The position numbers and the translations under genes are program-made. From NCBI GenBank assembly GCA_018396435.1, contig JAGTRG010000001.1, forward strand, positions 9,659-73,658: a stretch of DNA of 64,000 nt, written 5' to 3'. This document shows, piece by piece, positions 17,155 through 18,675 of this stretch (the stretch's first letter is position 1; each line of letters opens with the position of its first letter). Under the pieces are notes generated by a model. The model made no database searches and was not told the origin of the DNA. It saw nothing but the letters and a program-made list of their open reading frames with translations. The DNA comes from Candidatus Bathyarchaeota archaeon (lineage in GTDB: Archaea > Thermoproteota > Bathyarchaeia > Bathyarchaeales > DTEX01).

Positions 17155-18675
17155 GCCTCCTCAACCTCCTTAAAAGCTCATCCACATTGGGCGTATCTCT
17201 ACTAGCAAGCTTCGCTGAGAACTCAGCTATTTTCGGCAGATACTTTGCGAATATGGATAGGCGGGCCTTTTCACGTTTAGCCTTCTCCTTCTTAGAGAGG
17301 TAAATGTCAAGTTGGCGGGCAACCTCCCTTATCCCGTTAAGTATCTCCCTGCTAACCTCAGGTCTATCAGCGATCATCTCCTTACCAACGGTTTTCCACG
17401 GAATTTTAGTGCTGCATATGTGGACTAGAACCGCGAAGGGCATGCCCGAAGTCAACCCGTAATTCCTCCAATTAATCGACTTAACAATTTTCCAGCTCAC
17501 ATCGCCTGATTCATCATAGACCAGCGGTATTTTGTTAGCAAATCTGTAAAGCAGTATGTCCTCGCTCGTAGGGATTTTCCCCCCATAGGCTATTCCAACC
17601 TCAATTATGAACGGGTGGCCGGAGTAGGCTGAAGGCTTACGCTGGGAAACCGCCACAAACTCAGGTTCCAGCTCCTTCAGGACGCCAGCTTTAAGAAGGT
17701 TCTCACCTAAAGGCGAGAGGCATCCTGCATCTGGAGGGAGAAACTCCTCGAAACTTTTCATAGCATGCACAAGGTTCACAATCTCCTCGGGTTTAAGCTT
17801 CTTCGGATCAGCATCCTCTGGAAAACCAGCGAATCTGAGAAAGTTTTTAGCTATGCGCTTACCAACCCTGTGGAAGTGCTTCTGCATAAAGTCAAGCAGC
17901 GTTTTACAGCTTGTCACACGTATTATCCTATACATTGTTTCAACATCTATACCGTGCGGATGCGGTAAAGTTTCCCTCGGCTGCGGTGGAAGAACCGAAA
18001 CCGTCCTCTCAAACTTATACAGTCTCCCTCTGGGGTCAACAAACGTTATGCTCGCATAAGGGTTAACGATCGCTGTTTGCCTCAAATACTCTAAGATTTT
18101 AGGCATGGCCTTATAGTAGTCCCCTTCAACATACACCTCAACGATTGTTCCACGCCATTTATTCTCATTCTCACGCACTCTCCTATCCAGGATAACCGGA
18201 CGGTTCCGCTCTATATCTATCATTAAAGTGTACTCGTAAATTTTAGATGTCCCAGTGCTCGATATTACCTTAACAGGCTTATTCGTCGTTATCTGCCCAT
18301 AGAGAATCGTCATTGTTCCGCCAAGACCGAATGTTCCACGGGACTGCTTCAGCTTATACTTTGAGCTGAAGAGAAATTGGCAGAAGGCTAAAGGAACGAA
18401 ATCAGCCGGTATGCCGGAACCATTATCCTCAATCCTTAAAACATAAAGGTTTTCACTCTTCTCATTCACGAAGGATAGGCGTATGTAAATATCCGGCAGG
18501 ATCCCTAAGGGTTCAGAGGCGTCAAGCGAGTTTTCAACAAGCTCTCTTATTGCTGAAAATATCGCCCTAACTGGGTTCGCGAAGCCCGCTATCTCCCTAT
18601 TCCTATAAAAGAAGTCTGCAGGACTTATCTCTTGGAATATTTGGCTTATTTTCCCACGCCCCTCTTAAAAGGCAT
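17141..18675 (-). CDS. top6B: DNA topoisomerase VI subunit B. The 5' end needs a -1 frame change or a non-canonical start.
   Basis: Bergerat-fold N-box [13 protein letters not shown] and [16 protein letters not shown] lie upstream of the first in-frame GTG (18469). The frame is open to 18664 with no ATG/GTG/TTG. The ATG at 18675 is in the +1-offset frame. IEDNGSGIP G1 box. Confidence 0.85.
18649..18655 (-). other. G_GGA_AAA slippery-heptamer-like site followed by a 0-frame TAA
   Basis: Reading from ATG 18675 gives ATG CCT TTT AAG AGG GGC GTG GGA AAA TAA. A -1 shift on G GGA AAA joins ATA AGC CAA..., the top6B frame. Confidence 0.4.

Follow-up and report, generated by a model that had tools for sequence, protein, structure and literature searches.

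Loss of the canonical top6B start codon in hot-spring Bathyarchaeia and a probable near-cognate AUA start

The top6B gene and its missing start codon

We analysed a 64,000-nt stretch of a Bathyarchaeia genome (hereafter the window), in which top6B, the gene for the B subunit of topoisomerase VI, has no canonical start codon where its conserved coding sequence begins. All top6B coordinates refer to the minus strand of the window. The top6B frame is closed upstream by a TAA at 18667-18665 and reads TAA(18667-65) GAG GGG CGT GGG AAA ATA(18649-47) AGC CAA ATA TTC CAA GAG ATA AGT CCT. A preliminary description of this DNA had stated that the frame holds no ATG, GTG or TTG between this TAA and a GTG at 18469-18467, and the sequence agrees. 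That GTG is the first canonical start in frame and the one taken by naive gene callers; it opens an open reading frame (ORF) for a truncated product of 442 aa. Read from the ATA to its stop (18649-17141), with the ATA as initiator Met, the gene encodes 502 aa.

Several features lie close together in the leader. In 5' to 3' order on the minus strand, a TATA-like ATATTTATTTTA (18712-18701) is followed further downstream by GGTGAAAA and then by an ATG at 18675. This ATG, which has no counterpart in relatives, opens a 9-codon upstream ORF (18675-18646) that reads ATG CCT TTT AAG AGG GGC GTG GGA AAA TAA (MPFKRGVGK), with its stop at 18648-18646. The heptamer G_GGA_AAA lies within it at 18655-18649. 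The preliminary description had located the TATA-like element, this ORF and the heptamer correctly. The last codons of the same ORF, GTG GGA AAA TAA (18657-18646), form a mini-ORF whose TAA overlaps the ATA of top6B (A-TAA). Its GTG (18657-18655) is in the +1 frame relative to top6B and lies inside a Shine-Dalgarno (SD)-like element, GAGGGGCGTGGG (18664-18653), as judged by its duplex with a generic archaeal anti-SD sequence. The TATA-like element is conserved clade-wide and is, from its position, the probable promoter element of a top6B-top6A operon. A leader hairpin is also predicted, in which AUGCCUUU (18675-18668) pairs with AGGGGCGU (18663-18656) on the minus strand. Such a hairpin would mask the window-specific AUG along with some of the SD-like element and the GUG, and it is weaker in two related loci that have one C missing (L021 and L036; relatives are denoted by such locus numbers). 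Rfam and tRNA scans of the window returned nothing relevant.

The 502-aa product has the properties of Top6B. It matches the HATPase_c family of Pfam at residues 29-111 (E = 7e-8, above the curated cut-off) and the transducer family Topo-VIb_trans (PF09239) at residues 306-462 (E = 2e-61), and it aligns to the solved Sulfolobus Top6B, 2zbk_B, starting at residue 4. The N-box of its GHKL/Bergerat ATPase, ELVENSLDA (E-x-x-x-N-x-x-D), lies in the start-less stretch, represents the conserved Glu and Asn motif of GHKL ATPases and aligns with RELIENSLDA of 2zbk_B. Pfam and the structure alignment agree with the conserved N-terminus that had been recognized upstream of GTG 18469. The HATPase_c match is lost in the 442-aa ORF and appears only when the start-less stretch is included, which indicates that this stretch is needed for Top6B function. 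Uncultured hot-spring Bathyarchaeia metagenome-assembled genomes (MAGs) encode Top6B proteins with 64-98% identity to that of the window.

The partner gene top6A (17154-16063, minus strand) overlaps the end of top6B and encodes TP6A_N (PF04406) and Toprim (PF21180) domains. It has a strong SD of its own, AAGGAGGUUGAG (-12.1 kcal/mol), 6 nt upstream of its TTG at 17154. The gene order RIO1-KH-top6B-top6A is retained in relatives.

The reading from the ATA already exists in the databases as a homology-based pipeline choice. The NCBI protein MBS7653473.1 is identical to the 502-aa product read with Met at the ATA (a PGAP start choice). The L010 product was likewise deposited with an ATA start (MBS7633889.1), and the NCBI protein for L016 (P0022) starts on the equivalent ATA. 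Since the form deposited at NCBI is the 502-aa one, the naive 442-aa ORF had no exact match on record. Gene callers of the Prodigal type (JGI, Logan, ENA) produce Top6B truncations of 390-469 aa, those of Logan and JGI in relatives being 442-469 aa long. They cut 33-112 residues off the protein, the ATPase N-box among them, with consequences for MAG completeness and functional calls.

A shared frame break and its history

We compared the 5' regions of 35 GTDB loci and further JGI, ENA and Logan contigs. The start-less set comprised seven independent assemblies (the window, L010, L021, L036, L043, L044 and L045), which come from different studies and pipelines (NCBI MAGs, ENA, JGI and Logan) and have an identical start-less frame layout. 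The preliminary description had pointed to relatives as the place to look for conservation of the unusual 5' end; there the frame break proved conserved, and the heptamer and upstream ATG did not.

The start-less stretch is under purifying selection. Within the closest group top6B differs at 3-6% of nucleotides, and the distance to the L001-type sister lineage is about 13%. In codons 2-60 counted from the ATA (the 59 codons before GTG 18469), 15/16 variable sites fall at the third position. The ratio of nonsynonymous to synonymous divergence (dN/dS) of these codons is 0-0.04 at a dS of 0.17-0.34 in the closest group, the same regime as in the remaining gene. Synonymous divergence between the start-less group and the L001-type lineage reaches about 0.6-0.9, and the rest of top6B and top6A are intact. 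Purifying selection on codons 2-60 indicates that the N-terminus has long been translated in the top6B frame.

The outgroups suggest where translation used to begin. In 16 outgroup loci, an in-frame GTG lies three codons before the position of the window ATA. Fifteen of the 16 read GTG-NNN-NNN-ATA, for example GTG GGG ACA ATA AGC in L011 and GTG GGG GCA ATA AGC in L007; the other, L006, reads GTG GGG GTG GCA GAC and has no ATA. Start-less members have one G fewer, GTG GGA NAA TAA, shortened to GTG GGA TAA in L044. When the seven start-less loci were aligned with L011 and L007, the lost base fell in the G-run, which is GGG in the window (18655-18653) and GGGG in the outgroups. This 1-nt deletion, from GTG GGG ACA ATA to GTG GGA CAA TAA, moved the ancestral GTG out of frame. 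GTG 18657 is the vestigial start and the mini-ORF its remnant.

A neighbour-joining tree of the coding sequences places the deletion in the common ancestor of three groups. All members of group A (the window, L010, L043, L044, L021 and L036) are start-less. Group B contains the start-less L045 as well as L046, which has an ATG one codon upstream of the ATA. In group C (L001, L037 and L038), one more base is deleted and an ATG stands exactly at the window ATA codon, 8 nt after GAGG. The two group B loci come from separate JGI data sets (3300042903 and 3300043569) and differ at a single place in 4,410 aligned nt, where CA in L045 (1400-1401) is TG in L046. The change turns ACA into the ATG start codon of top6B. 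This pair looks like a segregating or very recent start restoration in a natural population.

Judging from the tree, the two ATG restorations were independent; both arose at or next to the ATA codon, and only in the clade without an in-frame GTG. Their confinement to this clade suggests that the GTG was a working start in the outgroups. Their position suggests that initiation takes place at this spot and that the start-less state, while functional, is probably sub-optimal. A start at the ATA position is workable, since group C uses an unambiguous ATG there. More distant homologues begin M-V-T-F-Q-E-I-S-P, at most one residue from the ATA position.

A survey of start-codon turnover found evolution toward AUG from weaker starts (Belinky, Rogozin and Koonin 2017, PMC5622118). 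It counted AUG/GUG/UUG substitutions and put switches to AUU or CUG at about 1 in 10^4-10^5, and AUA was not observed. The two independent ATG gains that followed GTG loss in top6B resemble this trend. Unlike the cases surveyed, the top6B start was lost by an indel, and the start-less state has persisted over a dS of about 0.6-0.9.

Initiation at AUA and the alternatives

We suggest that translation of full-length Top6B most likely begins at the in-frame AUA at 18649-18647, and we hold this with moderate confidence. It is favoured because the sister lineage has an ATG at that very codon, because an SD-like element before it is conserved, and because distant homologues start within one residue of it. 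The locus has what a near-cognate start calls for: no canonical in-frame start upstream of a conserved, selected coding sequence, and an AUA where homologues start, with an SD-like element at a suitable distance (given the assumed anti-SD). In-frame initiation at ATA 18649 or at ATA 18640 had both been offered in the preliminary description. The first is best supported; the second was set aside as a window-specific codon that is GTA in all relatives.

All start-less members share the in-frame ATA, a 21-nt leader TTTT(A/G)AGAGGGGCGTGGGANA and the remnant GTG GGA NAA TAA, whose stop overlaps the ATA in every case. Among the six group A genomes, 2/21 leader sites vary, compared with 37% of four-fold degenerate sites (P = 0.0055). 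Within the leader, GAGGGGCGUGGG forms a duplex of -10.2 kcal/mol that ends 4 nt before the ATA, calculated with an assumed generic archaeal anti-SD and not with that of this genome. This duplex, of which the vestigial GUG is itself a part, ranks in the top quintile of 43 window genes, and its spacing is within their range.

From these features we infer the following steps. The initiator tRNA would decode AUA 18649-18647 as Met, giving the 502-aa product. The SD-like GAGGGGCGUGGG lies 4 nt upstream and would place the small subunit on this codon. In addition, ribosomes that finish the mini-ORF GUG GGA AAA UAA may reinitiate at the overlapping AUA (AUAA).

Near-cognate starts are known in bacteria: the infC and pcnB genes of E. 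coli have AUU start codons. As in these genes, an SD precedes top6B and its first codon departs from AUG at the third position, and decoding by the initiator tRNA is proposed here. Annotation pipelines accept such starts under table 11. Their intrinsic efficiency is low, with AUA, AUC and AUU initiating at 0.02-3% of AUG in E. coli (10.1101/063800). The infC AUU is a conserved autoregulatory device, whereas the AUA of top6B looks makeshift after an indel and has repeatedly been replaced by ATG. A further difference from infC and pcnB is that top6B belongs to an archaeon, a group whose reviewed and documented starts are AUG, GUG and UUG only (PMC7531240), and its start is read from sequence.

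The proposed reinitiation also has a parallel. Stop and start codons that overlap (ATGA, TGATG) couple translation by termination-reinitiation in archaea and bacteria (Huber et al. 2019, PMC6728339). The mini-ORF stop overlaps the ATA with the same 4-nt geometry (A-TAA versus A-TGA), and an SD-like motif lies in or just before the upstream ORF, as in many coupled pairs. The restart codon of top6B is AUA, however, instead of AUG, GUG or UUG, and the upstream ORF is a remnant of 3-9 codons and no gene. Coupling is proposed here by analogy of geometry, and the overlap follows automatically from the conserved Ile-Ser codons (ATA AGC).

Several observations weigh against an AUA start. There is no experimental precedent for an essential archaeal gene that starts mainly at AUA, and initiation as weak as that reported for E. 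coli fits poorly with an enzyme the cell cannot do without, although a low copy number of topoisomerase VI may suffice. The outgroups, too, conserve this ATA, as an Ile codon, and its conservation alone is no proof of start use. The SD duplex depends on a generic anti-SD, and the ATA start in the databases was chosen by a pipeline on homology and is not evidence. Finally, the conserved GTG GGA of all start-less members also fits a GUG-initiated P-site slip. In favour of an AUA start, about 30% of the putative alternative start sites seen by ribosome profiling in Haloferax volcanii are near-cognate (PMC7261190).

Frameshifting into the top6B frame is the alternative that survives best. The preliminary description had proposed programmed -1 frameshifting on G_GGA_AAA from ATG 18675, and this form of it found no support. 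The heptamer is G_GGA_CAA in L010, L043, L021 and L045, G_GGA_GAA in L036 and G_GGA_TAA in L044. Across the seven start-less assemblies, base 18651 accordingly reads A, C, C, T, G, C and C, covering all four nucleotides. Only the window has an X_XXY_YYZ site, in the frame of ATG 18675 and GTG 18657. The window is also alone in having the upstream ATG, whose position is TTG in L010, L043 and L044; in L021 and L036 a missing C shifts that TTG to the third frame. No translated 0-frame ORF is conserved, and what the start-less members have in common is the 3-codon GTG remnant.

RNA structure and sequence statistics did not single out the heptamer either. Folds of the RNA downstream of it (minimum free energy z = -1.2 and -0.6) and of the whole leader showed no excess stability relative to shuffled sequences. 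Stimulators of -1 frameshifting sit 5-9 nt downstream of the slippery site (PMC8211752), and the nearest hairpin here starts about 17 nt downstream, which leaves the adjacent 0-frame stop as the only possible stimulator. Heptamers of the form X_XXY_YYZ (Y = A/T) occur about once per 262 nt in the window, where GGGAAAA is found 23 times. The heptamer is no more than chance expectation, a coincidence at a hypervariable site. Relatives that lack both the ATG and the heptamer and keep a canonical in-frame start had been named beforehand as evidence against frameshifting, and the L001 type is exactly that, with an in-frame ATG. Because the heptamer and upstream ATG are found in one genome, slippage on G_GGA_AAA is not the clade-wide mechanism. 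Both appear to be lineage-specific by-products of unconstrained sites, and a minor frameshift product may be made in this genome.

Frameshifting of this kind is known from archaea. The fucA1 gene of S. solfataricus is expressed by -1 frameshifting, at about 10% in vitro (PMC1616953, PMC8211752). Like fucA1 and dnaX of E. coli, the window has a 0-frame slippery heptamer followed by a 0-frame stop, and a -1 slip there enters top6B. The slippery region is 100% conserved in fucA1 relatives (PMC8211752), in contrast to the heptamer of top6B. Top6B also differs from both genes in having no stimulatory structure at 5-9 nt and a 0-frame ORF of only 4-10 codons whose ATG is not conserved.

The main rival to AUA initiation is a simpler -1 slip, which starts at the vestigial GUG 18657 (or, in the window, at AUG 18675) and in which peptidyl-tRNA-Gly moves from GGA to GGG on G_GGA. 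The product from the GUG would begin MGKISQ..., and tandem slippage on G_GGA_AAA could occur in the window genome only. GTG GGA is kept in 7/7 start-less assemblies, and a 0-frame stop follows within 1-2 codons, immediately in L044 (GTG GGA TAA) and after a perfect X_XXY_YYZ heptamer in the window. A tRNA-Gly(UCC) can re-pair from GGA to GGG. Slippage of one tRNA in the P site while the A site stands empty has been described (PMC8211752), and fucA1 is a precedent for -1 frameshifting in archaea. Against this stand the variable A-site half of the heptamer (all four nucleotides at 18651), the window-specific upstream ATG with its broken frame in L021 and L036, and a downstream hairpin that is neither significant nor at the right distance. 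The SD-like core lies 1-3 nt from the GUG, too close for SD guidance; among window genes with a comparably strong SD of the GGAGG/GGTGA type, none has a spacing below 2-3 nt. P-site slippage without a stimulator is normally inefficient, and a -1 slip would leave unexplained a similar lesion in an isomerase gene described below, since +1 is needed there. We regard slippage from the GUG as unlikely, yet as deserving more weight than any other alternative. We set aside transcriptional slippage or editing, for which the G3 and A4 runs are too short.

An assembly or sequencing indel in the window, hiding a gene with a simple in-frame start, is very improbable. One restored base would bring GTG 18657 and ATG 18675 into frame, and A18651 and ATG 18675 both rest on a single deposited contig. 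A single DNA-pattern scan of metagenomes found one L001-type contig only and no further window-type (AAAA) alleles. The identical frame layout nevertheless recurs in six further assemblies, obtained by different studies and pipelines and differing from the window at 3-13% of nucleotides, and no full-length relative of >91% identity with a canonical start upstream of the ATA codon was found among 5.8 billion proteins. Short runs such as G3 and A4 are also not error-prone in short-read consensus. The preliminary description had considered a one-base assembly deletion in the A4 run; the recurrence in seven divergent assemblies leads us to reject it, and the base missing relative to other loci sits in the G-run (GTGGGG to GTGGG, 18655-18653). 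Of the explanations first offered for this locus, initiation at ATA 18649 fared best, the programmed frameshift found no support as the mechanism and the A4 deletion was rejected.

We give just as little credence to the idea that top6B is decaying, or yields nothing but a protein shortened at its N-terminus that begins at GTG 18469 or at an internal start close by. The truncated products called by Prodigal-type programs in these genomes would fit it. The 59 codons upstream of GTG 18469 are under strong purifying selection, however (dN/dS 0-0.04), a truncated product would have neither the HATPase_c match nor the N-box, and the remaining gene and top6A are intact. Least credible of all is a start at GTG 18683-18681, which lies in the top6B frame five codons before the TAA at 18667-18665 and would require read-through of that stop: a 1-nt indel between this GTG and the stop separates L021 and L036 from their close relatives the window and L010, L021 and L045 carry a mutated GGTGA, and the stop varies between TAA and TGA (TGA in L043 and L044), so no coding constraint extends upstream of it.

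A second gene and the meaning of start-codon loss

A second gene of the window has a similar lesion. The type-2 isopentenyl pyrophosphate isomerase gene (44940-43837, minus strand) begins ATC GAC ATA ACA AGA AGT AGA AAA GAG GAT CAT, encoding IDITRSRKEDHL, and follows a TGA without a gap. The earliest canonical start in its frame is a TTG that lies 38 codons in. For comparison we considered the relatives L039, L040, L041, L047, L048 and L049. In the L021 MAG the ancestral GTG survives within GGG GTG AAG AGG ATC GCC ATA, where it shares bases with the stop of the kinase gene upstream (GTGA). A 1-nt insertion (GTG AAG ATG A, followed by ATC GAC ATA) puts this GTG out of frame in the window, L039, L049, L040 and L041. 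An SD, AAGGGGUGAA (-10.9 kcal/mol), lies 6 nt before ATC 44940 and 12 nt before ATA 44934, and the NCBI protein starts on the ATA (MBS7653500.1).

A single frameshift direction for both genes is excluded, as top6B needs -1 and the isomerase +1. Because the directions differ and both genes have an in-frame AUH codon (H = A, C or U) after a strong SD, near-cognate initiation is the only mechanism common to the two. Two such lesions among about 65 genes, each conserved in several assemblies, hint that this lineage is unusually tolerant of non-canonical starts.

Two other sets of gene calls in these contigs deserve a remark. The isopentenyl phosphate kinase (AA_kinase) gene that precedes the isomerase forms a single ORF of some 260 aa in the window (44947-45747) and in L040. 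In L039 (JAGTQL010000002.1, 1191-1988, a contig of the MAG that also contains L010), it is split into two called ORFs of 154 and 106 aa, which points to a frameshift or stop in that MAG or else to a faulty assembly. In the ribosomal-protein region of the window, two minus-strand ORFs (52476-53042 and 52073-52510) have GGAG directly before their first GTG, giving GGAGGTGA. This is probably the SD for a start a few codons downstream, and the longest-ORF starts of both are likely wrong.

A broader possibility is that start stringency is relaxed throughout this lineage, with AUA and AUC serving as genuine primary starts of essential genes in these hot-spring Bathyarchaeia. We think this distinctly improbable. 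To our knowledge, evidence for archaeal starts beyond AUG, GUG and UUG is limited to unvalidated ribosome-profiling peaks. Relaxed stringency would explain how frameshifting indels near the start became fixed and persisted for so long in two or more genes of a 64-kb stretch (top6B and the isomerase). It would also explain the invariant ATA at codon 0 in relatives that keep the GTG, and the placement of that GTG within a perfect SD (GGGGGTG) in several outgroups. Codon 0 is ATA in 15/16 GTG-type outgroups (among L002-L018 and L024), compared with a 55% share of ATA among the Ile codons of the gene, and the Ser that follows codon-0 Ile is always AGY in these outgroups. L018 reads GTG TAA GTG ATA. 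In its strongest form, the proposal would make AUA a conserved, deliberately weak top6B start across the whole clade. The GTG is in frame in 16/16 outgroups, however, L006 has no ATA, and ATG was gained only where the GTG frame had been lost, all of which speak against a clade-wide AUA start.

As top6B shows, a textbook slippery heptamer beside a frame break can arise by coincidence where a site is hypervariable. We interpret the gene as a new instance of a known phenomenon, the near-cognate start, with what seems an unusually clear history of loss by an indel, long persistence and two ATG restorations. One of these restorations is the sole difference in 4.4 kb between two co-occurring strains. 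The locus is a natural experiment in which an essential, strongly conserved gene has gone without a canonical start over a dS of up to about 0.9, and its allele set of ACA-ATA, AAA-ATA, ATG-ATA and ATG provides material for testing AUA initiation in archaea and the help that a mini-ORF may give it.

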